A DNA stretch of 64,000 nucleotides, from contig CAMEFI010000015.1 of NCBI GenBank assembly GCA_945915475.1, positions 3,277 to 67,276 of the forward strand. Reading direction: 5' to 3'. Below, piece after piece: positions 1,962 to 62,815 of this stretch. The notes under the pieces are model-generated. The model made no database searches. It was given only the letters and a program-made list of their open reading frames with translations, and was not told the DNA's origin. Origin of the DNA: an uncultured Clostridium sp. Lineage in GTDB: Bacteria; Bacillota; Clostridia; Lachnospirales; Lachnospiraceae. Position numbers and translations under genes: made by a program. Each line of letters begins with the position of its first letter. The first letter of the stretch is position 1.

Positions 1962-2167
1962 TAGGCAATTGCGAAACTCTTGAAAATGCATATTGAGTTG
2001 TGAAGATTTGACAAGTATCCTAAGCAGGTGCTTTGAGACCGCCGGTACTTAACGAGTGTGAAACACGAGTTTAGTACCGCTGCGAGGCGAGAGCAGCGCA
2101 AGCGTGCCTGTGAGGATATTGTCAAATTGCACAACGTTTGAAGAAACAGGCGTTTCGCAAACGCCTA
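1962..2167 (-). mobile_element. MITE-like inverted-repeat element, copy 1 of 4 (inverted relative to copies 2-4)
   Basis: 206 bp. Termini are TAGGCAATTGCGAAACTCTTG ... CAGGCGTTTCGCAAACGCCTA. The interior is near identical to copies 2 and 3. It is flanked by direct repeats TTTCCTGGAA (1952-1961) and TTTCCCGGAA (2168-2177). It lies between hisD and hisB. Confidence 0.85.
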
Positions 2168-20237: not shown

Positions 20238-20446
20238 TAGGCAATTGCGAAACGCCTGTTTCTTCTATAAACGTTGTGCAATTTGACAATATCCTCACAG
20301 GCACGCTTGCGCTGCTCTCGCCTCGCAGCGGTACTAAACTCGTGTTTCACACTCGTTAAGTACCGGCGGTCTCAAAGCACCTGCTTAGGATACTTGTCAA
20401 ATCTGCACAACTCAATATACATTTTCAGGCGTTTCGCAAATGCCTA
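20238..20446 (+). mobile_element. MITE-like inverted-repeat element, copy 2 of 4
   Basis: 209 bp. Termini are TAGGCAATTGCGAAACGCCTG ... CAGGCGTTTCGCAAATGCCTA (20 of 21 complementary). A perfect 12-bp direct repeat TATAGAGATGAT flanks it at 20226-20237 and 20447-20458. Confidence 0.9.
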
Positions 20447-20476
20447 TATAGAGATGATTTACGAAAGGAGTCTATC

Positions 20477-38699: not shown

Positions 38700-38908
38700 T
38701 AGGCGTTTGCAAAATGCCTGTTTATTCTATAAACGTTGTGCAATTTGACAATATCCTCACAGGCACGCTTGCGCTGCTCTCGCCTCGCAGCGGTACTAAA
38801 CTCGTGTTTTACACTCGTTAAGTACCGGCGGTCTCAAAGCACCTGCTTAGGATACTTGTCAAATCTGCACAACTCAATATGCATTTTCAAGAGTTTCGCA
38901 ATTGCCTA
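38700..38908 (+). mobile_element. MITE-like inverted-repeat element, copy 3 of 4
   Basis: 209 bp. Termini are TAGGCGTTTGCAAAATGCCTG ... CAAGAGTTTCGCAATTGCCTA. A perfect direct repeat GGTATGCTTA flanks it at 38690-38699 and 38909-38918. If the shared CTA and T are counted, it extends to CTAGGTATGCTTAT. Confidence 0.9.
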
Positions 38909-39451
38909 GGTATGCTTATTGTGAAAGGAGAAAATGATTTCAAAATCTTCTTCCTTATATTTAAAAATAATCAAGAAAAGCAAAGCAAAAAATCCAAATG
39001 TCACATAGCAGTCAGCAATGTTGAAAACAGGAAAATCAATTAGTTTGAAGTATAAAAAATCAATTACATATTGAAAACGAATCCGGTCAATGAAGTTACC
39101 AATAGCACCAGATAAGATTAATATTAAAATAATTCTTAAATCACGGTAACAATTCATGTATAGGCAGCGCATGTAGATAGCAAAACCCAATGCAAGAACA
39201 ATAATCGTACAAATAGAAAATAATATCTGTTGATTCTGGAACATTCCCCATGCTGCACCTGCATTGCGAATATAATGGATTTCAAAAACATCCGGAATCA
39301 CTGGAATAGAATCGTATAAAGTCATATTGTGATCAATCAGATATTTTGCAACCTGATCCAATGCTATAAGTAAAAGAAATGAAAGGATTGCAGACAAAAT
39401 CTTGCCTGCAATCTTTGAGTTATCAGTTGAATTGTTTGTATGAGTATTCAA
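38906..39451 (-). CDS. lspA: Lipoprotein signal peptidase II
   Basis: LspA pattern (NAGAAWGM ... IGNFIDR ... VIDF ... FNIAD). TTG start after AGGAGA. The stop codon (CTA at 38906-38908) lies in the element terminus. Confidence 0.9.
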   Translation of the reverse strand: MNTHTNNSTDNSKIAGKILSAILSFLLLIALDQVAKYLIDHNMTLYDSIPVIPDVFEIHYIRNAGAAWGMFQNQQILFSICTIIVLALGFAIYMRCLYMNCYRDLRIILILILSGAIGNFIDRIRFQYVIDFLYFKLIDFPVFNIADCYVTFGFFALLFLIIFKYKEEDFEIIFSFHNKHT

Positions 39452-54167: not shown

Positions 54168-55463
54168 TTATGATTCTTTGATATGAATTAACCCTTTTTC
54201 CTCTAATCGTGCCAGGGATTTCATGATGCCAAATTTAGCATGATCGTAGGACAGTCCGCCTTGAAAATATACCGTATACGGATCATGCATTGGAGCATCT
54301 GCGGATAGTTCGATGGAGGCTCCTGAAATAAATGCCCCTGCTGCCATAATAACGTCACAATCATAACCGGGCATTGCCCATGGAGTTGGGGTTACGTGGG
54401 AATCCACTGGTGCTGCATATTGGATTCCTTCACAAAATGCAACAACCTTATCGGGATCGTGGAATGTAACTGCCTGAATAATATCATGTCTGGATTCGGT
54501 CGCATTTGGTGTACATTCAAAGCCTAACTGTTCATACAGATTTGCCGCAAAGATTGCACCCTTTAGGGCACCGTTTACCACTTGTGGTGCCATGAATAAT
54601 CCCTGAAAGAAATCCTTGTTCACACCTAATGTTGCTCCTACTTCTCCACCTAAACCCGGAGCAGTAAGACGATAATAGGCATTCTCCACACATTCTTTGG
54701 TTCCGCATATATAACCACCGATTGGGGCAAGGCCACCTCCCGGATTCTTGATGAGGGAACCGACAACCATGTCTGCTCCCACATTGGAAGGCTCCTCTAA
54801 CTCTACAAACTCACCATAACAATTATCTACCATGCATATGATATTCGGATTGATCTCTTTGATAAATGCGATCAGTTCTCCAATTTGTGCAACACTGAAA
54901 GTTGGTCGTGTCAGATATCCTTTAGAACGCTGTATTGTTACCATTTTTGTTTTGGAAGAGACAGTCTCTTTGATTTTGTCATAATCAAATGATCCATCTT
55001 CTTTTAATTCGACCTGTTTATAGGTTACACCGTATTCTGCCAAAGATCCACGGGACGGACGTATGCCTATAATCTCCTCCATAGTATCATATGGTTTCCC
55101 CACAGGAGAAATCAGCTCATCACCGGGACGCAGATTAGCAGATAATGCAAGGGCAAGGGCATGGGTTCCACATGTAATCTGCGGTCGTACCAAAGCTGCT
55201 TCTGTCCCAAAAATCTCAGCATATACATTCTCCAGTGTCTCCCGCCCAATATCATTATATCCATACCCGGTTGTCGGGGCAAAATGTGCTTCGGAAAGGC
55301 GGTATTTCTGCATGGCGTGTAATACCTTTAACTGATTACATTCTGTAATTTTATCAAGCTCTGCAAACCGGTCTTTCAAAGATTCTTCTATCTGTTGACA
55401 AAGAAAAAAAACTTTCTTCGATATTCCCATTGATTCATATGCTTCTTCTAACCCGTTAAACAT
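54168..55463 (-). CDS. PLP-dependent methionine gamma-lyase-family protein (YnbB / aluminium-resistance-like)
   Basis: 431 aa. The N-terminal pattern (KVLHAMQKYRLSEAHFAPTTGYGYND) and a position next to miaA are typical of this family. Confidence 0.8.
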   Translation of the reverse strand: MFNGLEEAYESMGISKKVFFLCQQIEESLKDRFAELDKITECNQLKVLHAMQKYRLSEAHFAPTTGYGYNDIGRETLENVYAEIFGTEAALVRPQITCGTHALALALSANLRPGDELISPVGKPYDTMEEIIGIRPSRGSLAEYGVTYKQVELKEDGSFDYDKIKETVSSKTKMVTIQRSKGYLTRPTFSVAQIGELIAFIKEINPNIICMVDNCYGEFVELEEPSNVGADMVVGSLIKNPGGGLAPIGGYICGTKECVENAYYRLTAPGLGGEVGATLGVNKDFFQGLFMAPQVVNGALKGAIFAANLYEQLGFECTPNATESRHDIIQAVTFHDPDKVVAFCEGIQYAAPVDSHVTPTPWAMPGYDCDVIMAAGAFISGASIELSADAPMHDPYTVYFQGGLSYDHAKFGIMKSLARLEEKGLIHIKES

Positions 55464-56424
55464 GGTATATGTCCTCCTTTTGTATAACCTGTCTGTTTTG
55501 TAATTGTTGTATCATAAAATCTAATTGCTGTCTTGTGGTTGGTAATGACTGCTTATCTACCCAGATAACATCCCGTTCTCTGCGAAACCATGTAAGCTGT
55601 CGTTTTGCAAAATGACGTGTATCCCGTTTTAAAATGTAAACAGCATCTTCTAAAGAGCATTCTCCCTGCAGATAAGGAATCATTTCTTTGTATCCTAGTC
55701 CCTGCATCGATACCATCTCTTTTGTACATCCATATTCTAATACTGCTTTTACTTCTTCTATGAGACCATTGTCTAACATCTGGTCAATCCTTAAGTCAAT
55801 ACGGTTGTAAAGTTTTTCCCTGTCATCATTTAGTACAAAATAGGCAAATTGATACGGGGATTCTTTCTGACGTTCTTCGGCATTATGTTTCGATATTGGA
55901 TATCCGGTATCATGGTAAAATTCCAAAGCACGTATAACCCGTTTTACATTATTCTCATGTATGTCCTGATAAGAAACCGGATCAATATCTCTTAATTTTT
56001 CGTGCAGTGCATGCGCCCCATAAAGTGCAGCGTACTGCTCTAACTCTGTTCGATAGACGGATTCCTCTGTCTCTTCAAAGGAAATGTCATACAAAAGAGC
56101 CTGTATATAAAATCCTGTTCCCCCAACAACAATAGGAATCTTCCCTTTTGCATAGATATTCTCTAACGCCTGCTTGGCCATCTGTTGAAAACGGAATACA
56201 TTGAATTCTTCTTTCGGATCTAAGACATCAATGAGATAATGGGGGATTCCCTCCATCTCTTCCGGTTTAATCTTAGCCGTTCCGATATCTAACAGGCGGT
56301 ACACCTGCATGGAATCTGCTGAAATCATTTCTCCGTTTACTGCCTTAGCAAGCTCAATGGAAAGGGCCGTTTTACCAACAGCTGTCGGACCTGTTAATAT
56401 GATTAATGGTTTTTTATCAGTCAT
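55456..56424 (-). CDS. miaA: tRNA dimethylallyltransferase
   Basis: P-loop GPTAVGKT, and the DSMQVY and IPHYLID blocks. Confidence 0.93.
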   Translation of the reverse strand: MTDKKPLIILTGPTAVGKTALSIELAKAVNGEMISADSMQVYRLLDIGTAKIKPEEMEGIPHYLIDVLDPKEEFNVFRFQQMAKQALENIYAKGKIPIVVGGTGFYIQALLYDISFEETEESVYRTELEQYAALYGAHALHEKLRDIDPVSYQDIHENNVKRVIRALEFYHDTGYPISKHNAEERQKESPYQFAYFVLNDDREKLYNRIDLRIDQMLDNGLIEEVKAVLEYGCTKEMVSMQGLGYKEMIPYLQGECSLEDAVYILKRDTRHFAKRQLTWFRRERDVIWVDKQSLPTTRQQLDFMIQQLQNRQVIQKEDIYHV

Positions 56425-56487: not shown

Positions 56488-58467
56488 TTAATTTTGAATC
56501 CGCTTGAATTTTCTCTCCAATTCTGACTTGGTAAGACTAATCATAGTGGGTCTGCCATGGGGACAGTTATATGGGTTATCAAGAGATAACATTTCCTCAA
56601 TGAGAGCATCTGCTTCTTTACTTGAAATCTCGGTATTTCCTTTAATTGCAGCCTTACATGCCATTCCGGATAGCTTTTCCACAAAGAAATCTAAACTGAT
56701 ATTCCCTCTTTCTTCCATCAATGCATTTACCAATGCATCAAACAAAAGCTGTGGATCTACTCCCATGATGTCGTCCGGCATTGCACGGACAACAATGGAA
56801 TCATCACCAAACTCTTCCAGGTCAAACCCCGTCTGTTGAAACATTTCCATATGCCTTATCACAGTATCATACTCCACACTGTCTAGATGTAACACCTTTG
56901 GTGGTAATAATTGTTGTGAAATCACAGCTTTTTCAGATAATTGTTTCATCAATCGTTCAAACATGACTTTTTCGTGGGCGGCATGTTGGTCCACAATATA
57001 TAATTTTTCATCATATTCTATCATCCAGTAGGTTTTAAATACCTGTCCGATTAAACGGTGTTTCTTTCTGGCATTCTCTGATATAAACTGCTCCATAGGT
57101 ATGGAAAGCTGTTCTCCCTCAATATCCGTTATTTCCTGTGGAAACGTTTCATTGACCTCTTTTTCTTTTGATGTAGCAGAATCTATAACAGAAATGTGTC
57201 TGTTTTCCGGATTCATAATCTTGGAAGTATTGTGTTTCTTCTGACTGGATGCAGCTGCTCGGGAAATTTCTTTTTCCTGTTGTATAGTATAATTTGGGGA
57301 TTGAGTTACTGATTGAACTTTCTTTTCTGCTTCTGTCTTATGTTCGGTTATATCCTTCTGATATCGCATTGCTCTTGCTTTTTTTTCAAAGGGTTCCGGA
57401 ACATTCTGTGTAGTTTTCCTTTGTTGTTCCACCGTAATGGAACGCTCTTCTTTTGTACTCCGAAGAGAAACATCCTGAATCATTTCCTCACTTAATAAAG
57501 CCTTCCGGACACTGTCTTTTACAAAGTGAAACAACTGCTCTCCGTCTGCGTATTTGAATTCCATCTTGGTAGGATGGACATTAACATCTAATTTGTTGCT
57601 GTCAAGGGTAAAATGCAGTGCTGTAAATGGGAATTTATGAATCATGACAAAAGATTTATAAGCTTCTTCAATCGCCTTTGTCACGATATTACTGCGGATA
57701 TAACGACCATTGACAAAGTAATGTTCAAAACTGCGGTTTCCCTTGGATACATAAGCTTTTCCAATGTAGCCTTCCACAGAAAAATCCCCTGCCTCCCGCT
57801 TTACCGGAAGCAGATTTGCGGAAATATCCCTGCCATAAATGTGATAGATCACATCCTGCAGCTTGCCGTTTCCGGAGGTGGCAATTTTGTTGCTGCCGTT
57901 GATGATATATTTGAAAGAAACCTCCGGGTGAGACAGGGAAAGCCTTGTAATCAGCTCTGTTACATAACTTCCCTCCGTCATAGCGGTTTTCAAAAACTTC
58001 TTTCTTGCCGGCACATTGTAAAACAGGTTTCTCACAATGATTGTTGTTCCGGTTGGAGTACCGATTTCCTCACTGGCAATCTCTTTGCTTCCATGAATCT
58101 CATACCGGATTCCGGTTAATGCATGGGCGGTTTTGGTGATACATTCCACCTGTGCCACTGCAGCAATACTGGCTAGTGCCTCACCGCGGAATCCTAACGA
58201 ACTTACACTTAATAAATCCTCAATGGTCATAATCTTGCTGGTGGCATGGCGGATAAAGGCTGTTGGAACCTCTTCTTTTTCAATACCGGCTCCGTTATCC
58301 GTAATTCGGATAAAAGACATTCCACCATCCTTGATTTCCACGGTAATGGCGGTGGCACCTGCATCTATGGCATTTTCCACCAGTTCCTTTACCACAGAGG
58401 ATGGACGTTCTACTACCTCTCCGGCGGCTATTTTGTTAATGGTTGCCTGATCTAAAACCTTAATCAT
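56488..58467 (-). CDS. mutL: DNA mismatch repair protein MutL
   Basis: GHKL ATPase N-domain (IAAGEVVERPSSVVKELVENAIDAG) and C-terminal endonuclease motifs (DQHAAHEKV, ACK, CPHGRP). Confidence 0.95.
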   Translation of the reverse strand: MIKVLDQATINKIAAGEVVERPSSVVKELVENAIDAGATAITVEIKDGGMSFIRITDNGAGIEKEEVPTAFIRHATSKIMTIEDLLSVSSLGFRGEALASIAAVAQVECITKTAHALTGIRYEIHGSKEIASEEIGTPTGTTIIVRNLFYNVPARKKFLKTAMTEGSYVTELITRLSLSHPEVSFKYIINGSNKIATSGNGKLQDVIYHIYGRDISANLLPVKREAGDFSVEGYIGKAYVSKGNRSFEHYFVNGRYIRSNIVTKAIEEAYKSFVMIHKFPFTALHFTLDSNKLDVNVHPTKMEFKYADGEQLFHFVKDSVRKALLSEEMIQDVSLRSTKEERSITVEQQRKTTQNVPEPFEKKARAMRYQKDITEHKTEAEKKVQSVTQSPNYTIQQEKEISRAAASSQKKHNTSKIMNPENRHISVIDSATSKEKEVNETFPQEITDIEGEQLSIPMEQFISENARKKHRLIGQVFKTYWMIEYDEKLYIVDQHAAHEKVMFERLMKQLSEKAVISQQLLPPKVLHLDSVEYDTVIRHMEMFQQTGFDLEEFGDDSIVVRAMPDDIMGVDPQLLFDALVNALMEERGNISLDFFVEKLSGMACKAAIKGNTEISSKEADALIEEMLSLDNPYNCPHGRPTMISLTKSELERKFKRIQN

Positions 58468-58497
58468 TTATATGCTCCTTTTATCATTTAAATCGAT

Positions 58498-58707
58498 TAA
58501 GTAATTGCGAAACTCCTGTGTAATCTATAAACGTTGTGCAGTTTTAACATTATCCACGCAGGCACGCTTTCGCTACTCTCGCCTCGCAGCGGTACTAAAC
58601 TCGTGTTTCACACTCGTTAAGTGCCGGCGGTCTCAAAGTACCTGCTTAGGATACATGTCAAATCTGCATAAACTAATATACTTTTTCACGAGTTTCGCAA
58701 TCACCTA
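58498..58707 (+). mobile_element. MITE-like inverted-repeat element, copy 4 of 4 (most diverged)
   Basis: 210 bp. Termini are TAAGTAATTGCGAAACTCCTG ... CACGAGTTTCGCAATCACCTA. The flanking repeats are degraded: TTTAAATCGAT (58487-58497) and TTTCAATCTAT (58708-58718), 9 of 11 identical. It lies between mutS and mutL. Confidence 0.85.
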
Positions 58708-61353
58708 TTTCAATCTATCCTGTAGATCATTCAGATATAACAGTGCTTTCATGGGCGTCATATTAGATAAGTCAAGCGCCTTGATATCCGCCACCACGCT
58801 GGATTCCTCTGCATTGCCAAAGAAGGAAAGCTGTCCGGCAGTATCTTTGCTCTTTCTGCCCTTTCCCTTAGAACCGGTATCTTCTAACACCTTTGGTATA
58901 ATATCCGTTGCAGCAGTTACCGTAATATCGTGCTCGGATAATTCAGCTGCAATCTCCTTTGCACGGGCAAGTACAACCTCCGGAACTCCAGCTAATTTTG
59001 CAACCTGAATACCGTAGCTTTTATCCGCACCGCCTTTGATAATCTTACGAAGAAATACAATATCATCCCCGGATTCCTTTACCGAGATGCAGTAATTGTT
59101 CACGCTGTCTAATTTTCCCTCTAATTCCGTCAGTTCATGGTAATGGGTGGCAAATAATGTCTTTGCCCCTAATAAATCCTTGGAACTTATATATTCCACC
59201 ACCGCCCAGGCAATGGAAAGTCCATCATAGGTGGAGGTTCCCCGTCCGATTTCATCTAATATCAGCAGACTGTTAGATGTGGCATTTCTTAAAATATTTG
59301 CCACTTCGCTCATCTCCACCATAAAGGTACTCTGTCCGGAGGCAAGATCATCGGAAGCTCCCACACGGGTAAAGATTCGATCCACAATACCTATATCTGC
59401 CGAAGCTGCCGGTACAAAAGAGCCAATCTGTGCCATCAGTACGATCAATGCCACCTGGCGCATATAGGTGGATTTGCCCGCCATATTCGGTCCGGTAATG
59501 ATGGATACCCGATTCAAATCATTATCCAACAAGGTGTCGTTGGTGATAAAGGAATCATTATCCAGTACCTTTTCCACCACAGGGTGCCGTCCCTCTTTAA
59601 TCTCAATCCGTCCCTCCGTGTTAATGGATGGTCTGACAAAATGATTCTTCTCTGCCACATAGGCAAGGGATGCCAAAGCGTCCAGATCTGCGATGATTTT
59701 TGCAGCTTTCTGGACACGTTTTACCTCTTTTGCAAGATTATCTCTGACTTCCACAAATAAATCGTATTCTAAGCCAAATAAACGATCCTCCGCACCAAGA
59801 ATCTTGCCTGCAATATCCTCTAATTCATCGGAGGAATAGCGCTCTGAATTGGCGAGGGTCTGTTTTCGGATAAAATGCTCCGGTACAAGCTCCTTATAGG
59901 AGTTGGTCACATCAAAATAATACCCAAAAACCTTGTTGAATTTGATTTTCAGATTCTTGATTCCCGTTGCCTCCCGTTCCTTAGTTTCCAAATCAATGAG
60001 CCAGCTTTTTCCATCGGACTTGGCATTTTTTAAAATATCTACCGTTTCGTTGTAGCCGTCTTTGATGATACCACCCTCTTTTACAAGAATTGGCGGTTCC
60101 TCCACGATGGCTGTTTCAATGGTATCATAAAGGTCTGTAAGCTCGTCCAGCTCCCTTTCGTATTCTGCAAGCAATCCTTTGTCAAATTCCTGTAAAATAG
60201 CTTTTACATGGGGCAGAATGGCAATGGAATTCTTAAAGGCAATCAAATCTCTTGGATTTGCCGTTTTCAGTGTAATTCTCGTCATGAGACGCTCTAAATC
60301 ATAAACAGCATTCAGATATTCCCTTAATTCATCTCTGGTAATCATGGAATTGTTAAGGGCTTCTATGGCATCTAAACGGTTCTCTATCACTTCCCTGCGG
60401 ATGCATGGCTGTTCCACCATGGAACGCAGTGTTCTTGCTCCCATGGCGGTTTTCGTTTTATCAAGCACCCATAGCAGAGAGCCGCGTTTATTCTTATCCC
60501 GCATGGTCTCGCAAAGCTCCAGATTCCGTCTGGAAGCGCTGTCTAACACTACAAAATCCTCCACATGATAGGTGCTGATGTGGTTGATATGCTCCACAGC
60601 ACCCTTTTGTGTATCCTTCAGATAATACAAAAGACAACCTACAGAGCGGACTGCCTGTGGGTAATCCTTTAACCCTAATCCCTCAATATTCATCATATGG
60701 AACTGTTCTTTGATCAAACGCTCATCCATATCGTAGTCGTAATACCAGTCTTCCATAACGGTAATCATGGTATGCTCCTTTTCCCGAAGAGCCGACAGGC
60801 TTACCCCGATGCTTCCCTGTTCCTCTAAGGAAACGGCTCCGTTTACCAAAATCTCCACCGGCGAAAACTTTGATATCTCATCCATTACCTTTGCAAAGGT
60901 TTCCACCTCCGTGGTATAAAAATCTCCTGTGGTAATGTCTACAAAAGAAATGCCAAAGCATTTATCATAGAAAATGCTCATTAGGTAATTGTTCTTTGCT
61001 TCATTGAGACTTCCGGTACTCATATTGGTTCCCGGAGTCACAACTTTTATTACTTCACGTTTCACAAGGCCTTTTGCCTGTTTTGGATCTTCTACCTGTT
61101 CACAGATAGCAACCTTATACCCCTTTTCCACCAGACGGTTCAAATAATTTTCATACGCATGATACGGAATACCACACATAGGAGCACGTTCCTCCATACC
61201 GCAGTCTTTGCCGGTCAAGGTGATTTCCAACTCTTTCGATGCCGTTATGGCATCATCAAAAAACATTTCATAAAAATCGCCTAACCGGTAAAACAGGATA
61301 CAGTCCTTGTACTCTTCTTTAGTTTTACAGTACATTTCCATCATTGGTGTCAT
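58705..61353 (-). CDS. mutS: DNA mismatch repair protein MutS
   Basis: Mismatch-binding N-domain (FYRLGDFYEMFF), Walker A GPNMAGKST and the ILDEIGRGTST block. The stop codon (CTA at 58705-58707) is the element terminus. Confidence 0.95.
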   Translation of the reverse strand: MTPMMEMYCKTKEEYKDCILFYRLGDFYEMFFDDAITASKELEITLTGKDCGMEERAPMCGIPYHAYENYLNRLVEKGYKVAICEQVEDPKQAKGLVKREVIKVVTPGTNMSTGSLNEAKNNYLMSIFYDKCFGISFVDITTGDFYTTEVETFAKVMDEISKFSPVEILVNGAVSLEEQGSIGVSLSALREKEHTMITVMEDWYYDYDMDERLIKEQFHMMNIEGLGLKDYPQAVRSVGCLLYYLKDTQKGAVEHINHISTYHVEDFVVLDSASRRNLELCETMRDKNKRGSLLWVLDKTKTAMGARTLRSMVEQPCIRREVIENRLDAIEALNNSMITRDELREYLNAVYDLERLMTRITLKTANPRDLIAFKNSIAILPHVKAILQEFDKGLLAEYERELDELTDLYDTIETAIVEEPPILVKEGGIIKDGYNETVDILKNAKSDGKSWLIDLETKEREATGIKNLKIKFNKVFGYYFDVTNSYKELVPEHFIRKQTLANSERYSSDELEDIAGKILGAEDRLFGLEYDLFVEVRDNLAKEVKRVQKAAKIIADLDALASLAYVAEKNHFVRPSINTEGRIEIKEGRHPVVEKVLDNDSFITNDTLLDNDLNRVSIITGPNMAGKSTYMRQVALIVLMAQIGSFVPAASADIGIVDRIFTRVGASDDLASGQSTFMVEMSEVANILRNATSNSLLILDEIGRGTSTYDGLSIAWAVVEYISSKDLLGAKTLFATHYHELTELEGKLDSVNNYCISVKESGDDIVFLRKIIKGGADKSYGIQVAKLAGVPEVVLARAKEIAAELSEHDITVTAATDIIPKVLEDTGSKGKGRKSKDTAGQLSFFGNAEESSVVADIKALDLSNMTPMKALLYLNDLQDRLK

Positions 61354-61390: not shown

Positions 61391-62815
61391 TTATTCTACC
61401 ATCAGTTCTCCAATATAGTAAAATCCCTTTGCTTCCGTCAGCTTTACATTCTGGAAAGTTCCAATCAAAGATGTGTCTCCCGGAAAATGTACCAGCAAAT
61501 TGTTGGAAAGTCTTCCGGTTAAGAGATTCTCATCCTGTTCGTCTAATCCTTCTACCAAAACCTCCATGGTTTTACCCTGGTCTTTGCTGCAGGTTTCTTT
61601 TGCAATATCCTGCACTTCCTTTAACAGACGGTCAAAGCGTTCTTTAATCTCTTCTTCTGTTGCCGCAAACTCCATAGATGCTGCCGGGGTTCCGGTACGC
61701 TTAGAGTATATAAATGTAAATGCAGAATCAAACCGCACTTTCCTTACCACATCCAGAGTTTCCTCAAAATCTTCTTCTGTTTCCGTCGGGAATCCAACAA
61801 TAATATCCGTTGTAAGGGAAATATCCGGAATTGCGGTTTTGATCTTATCCACCAATGCCAGATAATCTTCCTTTGTATAACGGCGGTTCATGTCCTTAAG
61901 CACCTTTGTACTTCCCGACTGCATTGGCAGGTGTAAATGTTTGCAAATTTTTTTGGATTTTGCCATGACGGTAATCAATTCATCGGATAAATCCTTTGGA
62001 TGGGAAGTCATAAAACGGATTCTTTTTAATCCATCAATCTGTTCCACTTTCTCTAACAACTCTGCAAAGGTAATCGGATTTTCTAAATTCTTTCCGTATG
62101 AATTCACATTCTGACCTAAAAGCATCACTTCCACAACACCGTCTGCAACCAGATTTTCAATTTCATGAATAATATCTTCCGGTTTTCTGGAACGCTCTCG
62201 GCCTCTTACATAAGGTACAATGCAATAACTGCAGAAATTGTTACAGCCAAACATAATATTGACTCCACATTTAAAATCGTACTTGCGGTCAGCAGGAAGA
62301 TCTTCTACAATCTCATCGGTGCCTTCCCAAATATCAATTACCATACCCTTTGTGTTTAATTTCTTTTCAATCAACTCTGCCAGTTTAAAAACATTATGGG
62401 TTCCGAAAATAATATCTACATGGCGGTAGCTTTGTTTGATCTTCTCTACCACCTGGCTTTCCTGCATCATACACCCGCAAAGTGCGATCAGCATATGGGG
62501 ATTTTTTTTCTTGTACTTTTTAAGCTGTCCAAGTCTTCCATAAACACGAAGATTTGCATTTTCACGGACTGTACATGTGTTCATAATCAGGAAATCAGCA
62601 TCTTCCTTTTCCGTACGAATATAACCGATGGTTTCTAAGATTCCTTCTAATTTCTCGCTGTCCTTTGCATTCATCTGACAACCAAAGCAAATGCTGCAAT
62701 AAGTAAGGGGACGCCCTAATTTCTTGGAAAGTTCCGCCAATCGTATTTTCAGACGTGCCATAATTTCTTTCTGTTTTGCAGCTTCTAAGGCATTTATATT
62801 CTGTTCCGTTCTCAT
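61391..62815 (-). CDS. miaB: tRNA-i6A37 methylthiotransferase MiaB
   Basis: UPF0004 N-domain cysteines, radical SAM motif CNNFCSYC and a TRAM domain. Confidence 0.93.
   Translation of the reverse strand: MRTEQNINALEAAKQKEIMARLKIRLAELSKKLGRPLTYCSICFGCQMNAKDSEKLEGILETIGYIRTEKEDADFLIMNTCTVRENANLRVYGRLGQLKKYKKKNPHMLIALCGCMMQESQVVEKIKQSYRHVDIIFGTHNVFKLAELIEKKLNTKGMVIDIWEGTDEIVEDLPADRKYDFKCGVNIMFGCNNFCSYCIVPYVRGRERSRKPEDIIHEIENLVADGVVEVMLLGQNVNSYGKNLENPITFAELLEKVEQIDGLKRIRFMTSHPKDLSDELITVMAKSKKICKHLHLPMQSGSTKVLKDMNRRYTKEDYLALVDKIKTAIPDISLTTDIIVGFPTETEEDFEETLDVVRKVRFDSAFTFIYSKRTGTPAASMEFAATEEEIKERFDRLLKEVQDIAKETCSKDQGKTMEVLVEGLDEQDENLLTGRLSNNLLVHFPGDTSLIGTFQNVKLTEAKGFYYIGELMVE

Follow-up and report, generated by a model that had tools for sequence, protein, structure and literature searches.

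The 64,000-nt stretch of DNA analysed here (the window), from an uncultured Clostridium sp. of the Lachnospiraceae (contig CAMEFI010000015.1), carries a mobile element in its mismatch-repair operon, in the spacer between mutS and mutL. The element, copy c58 (58498-58707), is 210 nt long and non-coding and forms an imperfect hairpin over its whole length. It represents an undescribed family of miniature inverted-repeat transposable elements (MITEs), which are non-autonomous DNA transposons, and is one of the old copies of that family. We consider it probable, at roughly 0.85, that c58 was mobilised in trans by a partner insertion sequence (IS) of ISNCY/IS1182-like type and was placed by a target rule that refers to the Shine-Dalgarno sequence of the next gene. 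At 210 nt, c58 is within the size of a MITE (under about 500 bp); the family is non-coding, has inverted repeats, a target-site duplication, multiple copies and an empty site, and its repeats are common to an autonomous IS. A palindrome of the REP/BIME or ERIC type would have neither duplication nor IS-type repeats, and the family has both. MITEs in operon spacers are commonplace; what is unusual is the oriented, Shine-Dalgarno-referenced targeting and the apex core that the hairpin shares with other elements.

The insertion between mutS and mutL

The ends of c58 are terminal inverted repeats of about 20 nt, TAAGTAATTGCGAAACTCCTG and, reverse-complemented, TAGGTGATTGCGAAACTCGTG. The repeat on the mutL side (58498-58519, TAAGTAATTGCGAAACTCCTGT) can be aligned both to the repeats of other copies and to the termini of the complete IS. 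The repeat on the mutS side (58686-58707) has the reverse complement TAGGTGATTGCGAAACTCGTGA, and its first three bases are the stop codon of mutS. On the minus strand the junction reads ...GAT AGA TTG AAA TAG followed by GTGATTGCGAAACTCGTG ... CACAGGAGTTTCGCAATTACTTA, and then by ATCGATTTAAA TGA TAAAAGGAGCATATAA ATG. The present mutS stop, TAG at 58705-58707 (CTA on the plus strand), is formed by the last three bases of the element; every copy of the MITE family starts with YAGG. The element is flanked by an 11-nt target-site duplication. The coding copy, ATAGATTGAAA (58708-58718, minus strand), is the last 11 nt of the mutS sense codons and comprises the last two bases of an Asp codon and the Arg, Leu and Lys codons that end the gene. 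The non-coding copy, ATCGATTTAAA, lies at 58487-58497 on the minus strand. The two agree at 9 of 11 positions, and by our own estimate, made for a fixed offset in AT-rich sequence, such a match has a chance probability of about 2e-4. Next to the non-coding copy is a relic of the original stop, TGA at 58484-58486 (minus strand), then the 16 nt TAAAAGGAGCATATAA and the mutL ATG. The Shine-Dalgarno sequence of mutL, AAAGGAG (58475-58481, minus strand), lies inside these 16 nt; its GGAG begins 8 nt past the duplication, at a distance of 20 nt from the end of the element.

The original prediction, made from the window alone, had placed the element, its duplicates, the CTA/TAG stop and the relic TGA at these positions, and all of its coordinates hold when the sequence is re-read. 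It had also proposed that mutS once ended in TGA 16 nt before the mutL ATG and that the insertion separated the two genes and exchanged this TGA for the TAG of the element. A comparison of the junction among relatives, the check that it called for, confirms this directly. In the nearest relative (GCA_051877755.1, locus L002, with a second assembly, L003) the gene order is conserved and MutL is 80% identical, the highest identity found for the MutL of this host. The junction in both assemblies is ...CAG GAA CGT TTG AAG TGA TAAAAGGAGCAAATAC ATG. The spacer is 16 nt long and identical to that of the window at 14 of 16 positions, the element is absent from the orthologous site, and the relic TGA of the window has the same place relative to the 16 nt as the functional TGA of the relative. 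The junction of the relative equals that of the window minus the element and minus one duplicate, and so confirms the reconstruction. An independent assembly of the same species as the window (L001, ENA ERZ17896339) has an identical junction, which is therefore no assembly artefact. The predicted empty-site sequence of the species itself was not found in metagenome contigs, in a search that had no positive control.

Both genes are intact. mutS (58705-61353, minus strand) encodes 882 residues with the five Pfam domains MutS_I-V, and mutL (56488-58467, minus strand) encodes 659 residues with HATPase_c_3, DNA_mis_repair and MutL_C. The coding duplicate is neutral to the mutS frame, as had been predicted: MutS ends in ...LQDRLK here and in ...LQERLK in relatives, each directly before the stop, and its length is unchanged. 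Sequence comparison gives the same MutL N-terminus as in relatives. The prediction had further assigned two changes of 11 to the non-coding duplicate. The two mismatches are there, and only one of them, TTG to TTT, can be placed in that copy. The other, CGA versus AGA (both Arg), cannot be polarised, since relatives have CGT, CGG or AGA at this position; it may equally be a synonymous change in the coding copy. No open reading frame (ORF) lies wholly inside c58; among ORFs of at least 40 residues, only mutS itself and an antisense ORF extending into mutS share bases with it. The predicted RNA fold of the transcribed strand has a minimum free energy of -82.8 kcal/mol (z = -8.0), and a further z-score obtained for the hairpin is -7.5. 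A search of Rfam 15 returned no match across the whole window at gathering thresholds and only noise over 58400-58800 at E values up to 10, and a BLAST search of a plasmid collection with the element gave no match.

The junction varies further among relatives. Three loci (L004-L006, 3135-3962) have a 275-residue ORF without a Pfam domain between mutS and mutL. Three others have a 2'-5' RNA-ligase-like gene there, with a 2_5_RNA_ligase2 domain (inserts at L097 66-1461, L098 965-1504 and L099 1018-1452), and at L097 it stands beside a further ORF of 276 residues without a Pfam domain. In these relatives, which are about 80% identical, the genes added at the junction take up 0.5-1.4 kb, and within the clade examined the 16-nt spacer is kept only by L002/L003. 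The junction is thus evolutionarily plastic, and mutL is independent of the 16-nt spacing. One observation at L099 (1450-1500), where MutL is 79% identical, concerns the same target: GAGTTTCGCAATAGCGTA, upstream of mutL, matches the element repeat at 16 of 18 positions. It has GGAG at outward position 22 and ATG at 33, in keeping with the target rule described below, and overlaps the stop codon of the RNA-ligase-like ORF. This could be what is left, as a solo repeat, of a separate insertion that hit the same mutL target.

Partner insertion sequence, target rule and family copies

An autonomous partner of the MITE is found among viral contigs. A scan of IMG/VR with the repeat AGGYRATTGCGAAACKC gave 66 loci, many of them at contig ends. 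Locus L079 (369-2162) is a complete IS with the ends TAGGTAATTGCGAAACTCC... and ...GCGTTTCGCAATCGCCTA, a 10-bp duplication CATGAAAGAA and one ORF of 485 residues. At seven further loci, proteins 64-72% identical to the L079 transposase adjoin the repeat; five of these hold the whole element (1745-1768 bp), bounded by TAGGTAATTGCGAAACTC and TAGGCGTTTGCGAAACGC. Complete ISs range from 1745 to 1796 bp (about 1.77 kb). Both repeat variants occur together at L079, L052, L059, L075, L042 and L091, and both are found in MITE copies too. The IS duplications at L075 and L059 are 10-11 bp. The similarity between MITE and IS is confined to the repeats: it ends after about 20 bp, and we rejected the interior of the IS as the source of the MITE interior. 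The only Pfam model that the transposase passes is DUF772 (48 bits), while DDE_Tnp_1_6 scores 20.7 against a cut-off of 25.1 and DDE_Tnp_1 is also below threshold. The best NCBIfam model is IS1182 (NF033551), with 68.4 bits against a cut-off of 270. Homologues with 82-83% identity occur in Enterocloster clostridioformis and Lachnoclostridium sp. YL32 under the NCBI name 'ISNCY family transposase'. Because its scores lie below the curated cut-offs, the partner is called IS1182-like/ISNCY here and is not counted among the members of IS1182. IS4/IS231, ISAs1 and casposons had been suspected from the 10-13-bp duplication and were dropped once the partner IS was found.

IS and MITE insertions have a common flank layout. 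Reading outward from the element, the duplication of 10-12 nt is followed by about 8 nt, by GGAG and, some 5-12 nt further on, by the start codon, usually ATG; the element end typically lies 19-21 nt upstream of the Shine-Dalgarno GGAG. The loci behind this rule are L007-L029, L042-L091 and L121-L163. The discovery set comprised 22 hand-curated flanks (13 from MITE copies, 7 from complete ISs and 2 from single ends), and in 21 of them GGAG or GAGG starts at outward position 16-22. In the matrix of this set, AAAGGAG occupies positions 16-22 and the T of ATG falls on position 32. An independent test set came from a new scan with TAGGCGTTTGCGAAACGC, which gave 34 new unique flanks, none of them used to find the rule. 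The first GGAG or GAGG begins at positions 17-22 in 27 of the 34 (one at 17, three at 18, seven each at 19 and 20, six at 21 and three at 22), with a start codon, usually ATG, within about 5-12 nt after it. Over positions 1-40, GGAG itself is counted 22 times at 19-22 and five times elsewhere. The target flanks in the window are 58475-58497, 20447-20470, 2168-2190 and 38909-38930.

The IS is oriented with respect to its target. The same end faces the gene in all seven full-length copies; it is the GCGTTT end, beside the start codon of the transposase gene, which is itself directed away from the targeted gene. Flanks of the other end show the pattern in only 2 of about 19 cases, which marks the IS as oriented. 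The GGAG beside one copy in the window, c38, is no real ribosome-binding site but an antisense sequence in the 3' part of an lspA-like gene, and this favours recognition of the sequence over survival of harmless insertions. At the mutS-mutL junction, the first base of the mutS TGA stood exactly 8 nt ahead of the mutL GGAG (TGATAAAA GGAG), so that the rule puts an 11-nt staggered cut on the last 11 nt of the mutS sense codons. The pattern is observed, and we infer that it is the cause of the placement of c58 on the mutS stop. As a separate observation, one repeat contains AGGAG (complement of AACTCCT) 15-19 nt from its tip. Our search of the literature on IS targeting of Shine-Dalgarno sequences or ribosome-binding sites found nothing relevant.

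The window has four MITE copies, all in short intergenic spacers. Besides c58 these are c2 (1962-2167, minus strand), with a duplication matching at 9 of 10 positions, GGAG at outward position 19 and ATG at 30; c20 (20238-20446, plus strand), with a perfect 12-bp duplication TATAGAGATGAT, GGAG at 21 and ATG at 31; and c38 (38700-38908, plus strand), with a perfect duplication of 10-12 bp, which abuts the stop of the lspA-like gene (38906-39451, minus strand). Four copies in 64 kb is a high density, and all but c38 are followed, after about 30 nt, by the start codon of the next gene. The end of c38 also coincides with a stop codon: the lspA-like gene ends in ...CAT ACC TAG, with the TAG at the element end. 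This TAG may equally belong to the element or to the 12-bp duplication, the original stop being TAG as well. A scan with a 20-nt core against one genome per species found full-length relatives in two other Lachnospiraceae metagenome-assembled genomes (MAGs), at least eight copies in LOHA42_bin.057 and one in PUUB56_bin.030, the MAG that holds the empty mutS-mutL site. A comparison of the window with the MAGs that have the element, made to see whether it is part of one of them, gave no long match at the nucleotide level. Terminal inverted repeats are conserved in all 11 aligned copies, and the duplications outside the mutS-mutL locus are 10-12 bp and perfect or nearly so (12/12 at c20, 10/10 at c38, 11/11 at L012 and 12/12 at L028).

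The original prediction took c58 for an old copy, on the grounds of its drifted duplication and its greater divergence. c58 is indeed the most decayed copy and old relative to the others: it has 10 private substitutions among the 11 aligned copies, against 0-5 in the rest, and an imperfect duplication against the perfect ones of c20 and c38. The divergence is an age signal only in part. Copies c2, c20 and c38 are 95-98% identical among themselves and 96-97% identical to the PUUB56_bin.030 copy, whereas c58 is 86-88% identical to the other window copies and 89-92% identical to those of LOHA42_bin.057, with which it has diagnostic bases in common. The distance of 12-14% between c58 and the other window copies thus reflects, in part, a difference between subfamilies. 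The insertion is younger than the split from the L002 lineage.

Other elements of the family vary in form. Short elements with the same repeats and different interiors measure 125 nt (L012 5765-5890) and 188 nt (L071/L074). At L012 (5545-5890) two MITEs with the same repeats abut each other, a 209-nt element that bears the core being followed, directly after its duplication, by the 125-nt one. At L011 (1-220) a 209-nt copy has an insert of about 80 nt, with a small hairpin of its own, in the 5' half of the apex core, and this insert looks like a nested insertion. Around mutS and mutL, the window has a MiaB-like radical-SAM gene (61391-62815), miaA (55456-56424) and a methionine-gamma-lyase-like gene (54168-55463), all on the minus strand.

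The apex core and competing explanations

The centre of the hairpin is a conserved core of 60-90 nt. In c58 it occupies 58558-58645 (plus strand) and has the layout GCAGG..ACGCTnnCGCT..CGCAGCGGTACTAAACTCGTG-loop-CACTCGTTAAGTRCCGGCG..CCTGC; a loop of 5-45 nt or an extra hairpin lies between CGCAGCGGTACTAAACTCGTG and CACTCGTTAAGTRCCGGCG. The core recurs nearly unchanged in at least 6-8 other families of hairpin elements, in MAGs of Lachnospiraceae and other Clostridia and in metagenomes, with unrelated arms and termini (L008-L010, L013, L014, L016, L018-L025, L101, L104, L105, L110, L115, L116, L118 and L119). RNAalifold, applied to 14 diverse cores, gives the invariant stem CGGTACT.AAC/GTT.AGTRCCG, extended by further helices. 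Nine of the 19 consensus pairs show compensatory double changes, for example CGCAGCGG..CCGGCG, and the metagenome set adds more such variants, CGTAGCGG..CCGACG and CATAGCGG..CCGATG. A T.G wobble in 9 of the 14 cores makes one strand fold better. Evidently selection keeps the apex hairpin, as single-stranded DNA or as RNA. A function as strand-specific, sense-strand RNA is unlikely, since the orientation of the insertions relative to the flanking genes is random (8 the same and 10 opposite among 18 insertions between co-directional genes). No protein gene is linked to the core; an all-against-all BLASTP of ORFs within 3.5 kb gave only within-species orthologous neighbours. Rfam held no match, and a literature search for the core sequence and for Lachnospiraceae MITEs found nothing relevant. 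As a further observation, a Lachnospira MAG (L013 5800-6230) has about 2.6 tandem copies, with a period of 164 nt, of another core-bearing hairpin element, between two co-directional genes.

Three other explanations of the element and its position can be set against transposition under a target rule. The strong predicted structure directly upstream of mutL would suit a native regulatory leader, an attenuator or a small RNA gene, with no insertion at all. This is effectively refuted by the empty site in the relative and by the three more copies at unrelated loci of the window and those in other genomes, all with duplications; the sequence has no Rfam match and no predicted promoter or terminator either. 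The spacing of 19-21 nt might instead reflect survival: random insertions into AT-rich sequence would persist only just upstream of intact ribosome-binding sites, and the mutS stop would be a lucky survivor. The genomes and phage contigs are gene-dense with short spacers, hits in coding sequence or in a Shine-Dalgarno sequence would be purged, and the duplication at mutS had to keep the frame in order to survive, so selection surely also contributes to the regularity of the targets. As the whole cause we judge it unlikely. In the discovery set and the test set alike, positions scatter by no more than about 2 nt to either side, although sites a few nucleotides farther upstream in longer spacers would be equally harmless; the strict orientation of the IS, seen in each of the 7 full-length copies and in 27 of 34 test flanks (other end: 2 of about 19), and the non-ribosomal GGAG beside c38 also speak against it.

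The apex core raises a different possibility, that the element is a structured module domesticated by the host, similar to REP/BIME or ERIC, and retained as useful for mRNA stability, processing or protein binding. Conservation almost to the base across families with unrelated arms and repeats, the compensatory changes, the better folding of one strand and the position of nearly all copies in short spacers between co-directional genes are what such a module would show. Clear duplications and IS-type repeats nevertheless show arrival by transposition, and the closest relative lacks the element at the orthologous position. The random orientation makes a sense-strand RNA function unlikely, c58 is the most decayed copy, and neither an Rfam family nor a protein gene recurring beside core-bearing elements was found, so that domestication seems distinctly improbable. 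A broader proposal is that oriented IS/MITEs with a Shine-Dalgarno landmark exist together with a single apex hairpin of about 60-90 nt, acquired independently by MITE families of different transposases, and that this represents an undescribed functional DNA or RNA module of benefit to the elements or their hosts. We put this forward tentatively, as a possibility that is real and still short of an even chance.

Several points weigh against a MITE mobilised in trans and placed by the target rule. The regularity of the targets could owe something to purifying selection, by which harmless insertions survive. Either end of a MITE copy may face the Shine-Dalgarno sequence, unlike the IS. The full-length IS is absent from the window, and mobilisation in trans is a probable reading of the repeats common to MITE and IS; the IS copies come from IMG/VR contigs, and the family assignment of their transposase is below the thresholds of curated models. 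A simple 'junk MITE' model does not explain the conserved, covarying apex core. The host is an uncultured MAG.

Probable consequences for the operon, and known systems

By analogy with how DDE transposases work, the transposase of the ~1.77-kb IS with the same ~20-bp repeats would move the MITE in trans, cutting the target in a staggered manner 10-12 bp apart, and repair of the gaps would create the flanking duplication. At the original junction, ...TTG AAA TGA TAAAAGGAGCATATAA ATG, the staggered cut spanned the last 11 nt of the mutS sense codons. The element entered directly after the last codon of mutS, for Lys, and ahead of TGA, and the TAG(G) at its end supplied an in-frame stop. The outcome is an unchanged MutS, an untouched ribosome-binding site and start codon of mutL, and a spacer that has grown from 16 to the present 237 nt.

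No intrinsic terminator is predicted in 58300-58900, and we therefore regard continued co-transcription of mutS and mutL as the likeliest state. No minus-strand promoter is predicted in the same interval, where the single promoter-like site is on the opposite strand. An outward-facing promoter candidate picked by eye, TTCGCA-17-AATGAT, was rejected (8 of 12 matches, and too near the ribosome-binding site). The transcript would carry a long hairpin of about -83 kcal/mol. A fold of 300 nt keeps the hairpin, and its centroid structure leaves the Shine-Dalgarno sequence of mutL unpaired. Any translational coupling by termination and reinitiation would be lost, with the mutS stop now 237 nt rather than 16 nt from the mutL start. 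RNase III could plausibly cleave the long duplex, by analogy with Correia elements. The original prediction suggested that the insert could alter mutL expression; any net effect on the amount of MutL is probably modest, given that this junction accommodates 0.5-1.4 kb of additional genes in relatives.

Inactivation of mutS or mutL produces mutators. Here a mobile element has long been carried in the mismatch-repair operon with neither protein damaged, and its end serves as a stop codon. An element that returns again and again to the ribosome-binding-site region of mutL could give rise to mutator or expression variants among gut Lachnospiraceae. If the rule is true, an IS/MITE family that homes to Shine-Dalgarno sequences is a new kind of DDE target selection; it would offer a natural route to uncouple or re-wire the genes of an operon, and a tool for intergenic insertion of DNA could be built on it. 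Should the apex core prove functional, gut Firmicutes would possess a structured module that has so far escaped recognition.

Among known MITEs, the Correia elements (CREE/NEMIS) of Neisseria, RUP of Streptococcus pneumoniae and ERIC/IRU of enterobacteria are co-transcribed with neighbouring genes. They are 100-200 bp long and non-coding, have terminal inverted repeats, occur as many dispersed copies in operon spacers and form long mRNA hairpins. Correia elements are substrates of RNase III and can alter the expression of adjacent genes. Their sequences and those of RUP and ERIC are unrelated to the c58 family. Correia and RUP duplicate TA, in contrast to the 10-12 bp of the c58 family; for ERIC we know of no identified transposase or duplication. 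To our knowledge, none of the three has been reported at a fixed distance from a Shine-Dalgarno sequence.

MIC231 and IS231 are likewise a Firmicute MITE and IS pair with only the terminal repeats in common and a duplication of 10-12 bp. IS231 belongs to the IS4 family, occurs in the Bacillus cereus group, has DDE_Tnp_1 without DUF772 and has ends that begin with CATGCCC...; the partner of c58 differs from it in transposase family and in repeats. The target preference of IS231 is, as far as we know, unrelated to ribosome-binding sites. The partner resembles the IS1182/ISNCY elements of Lachnospiraceae in its DUF772, weak DDE_Tnp_1_6, single ORF, repeats of about 20 bp and length of about 1.77 kb. 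It differs from the IS1182 family in a score far under the curated cut-off, by which membership is not established. A literature search on the target sites of IS1182 and ISNCY found no preference for positions near a Shine-Dalgarno sequence, and we know of none for either. In target choice the closest comparison is with IS1397 and ISKpn1, which insert at REP sequences, and with the hot spots of IS30-type elements, where a DDE transposase likewise acts at a fixed offset from a short, abundant motif. The landmark of the present family is AAAGGAG instead, which directs insertions between the genes of operons and occasionally onto their stop codons.

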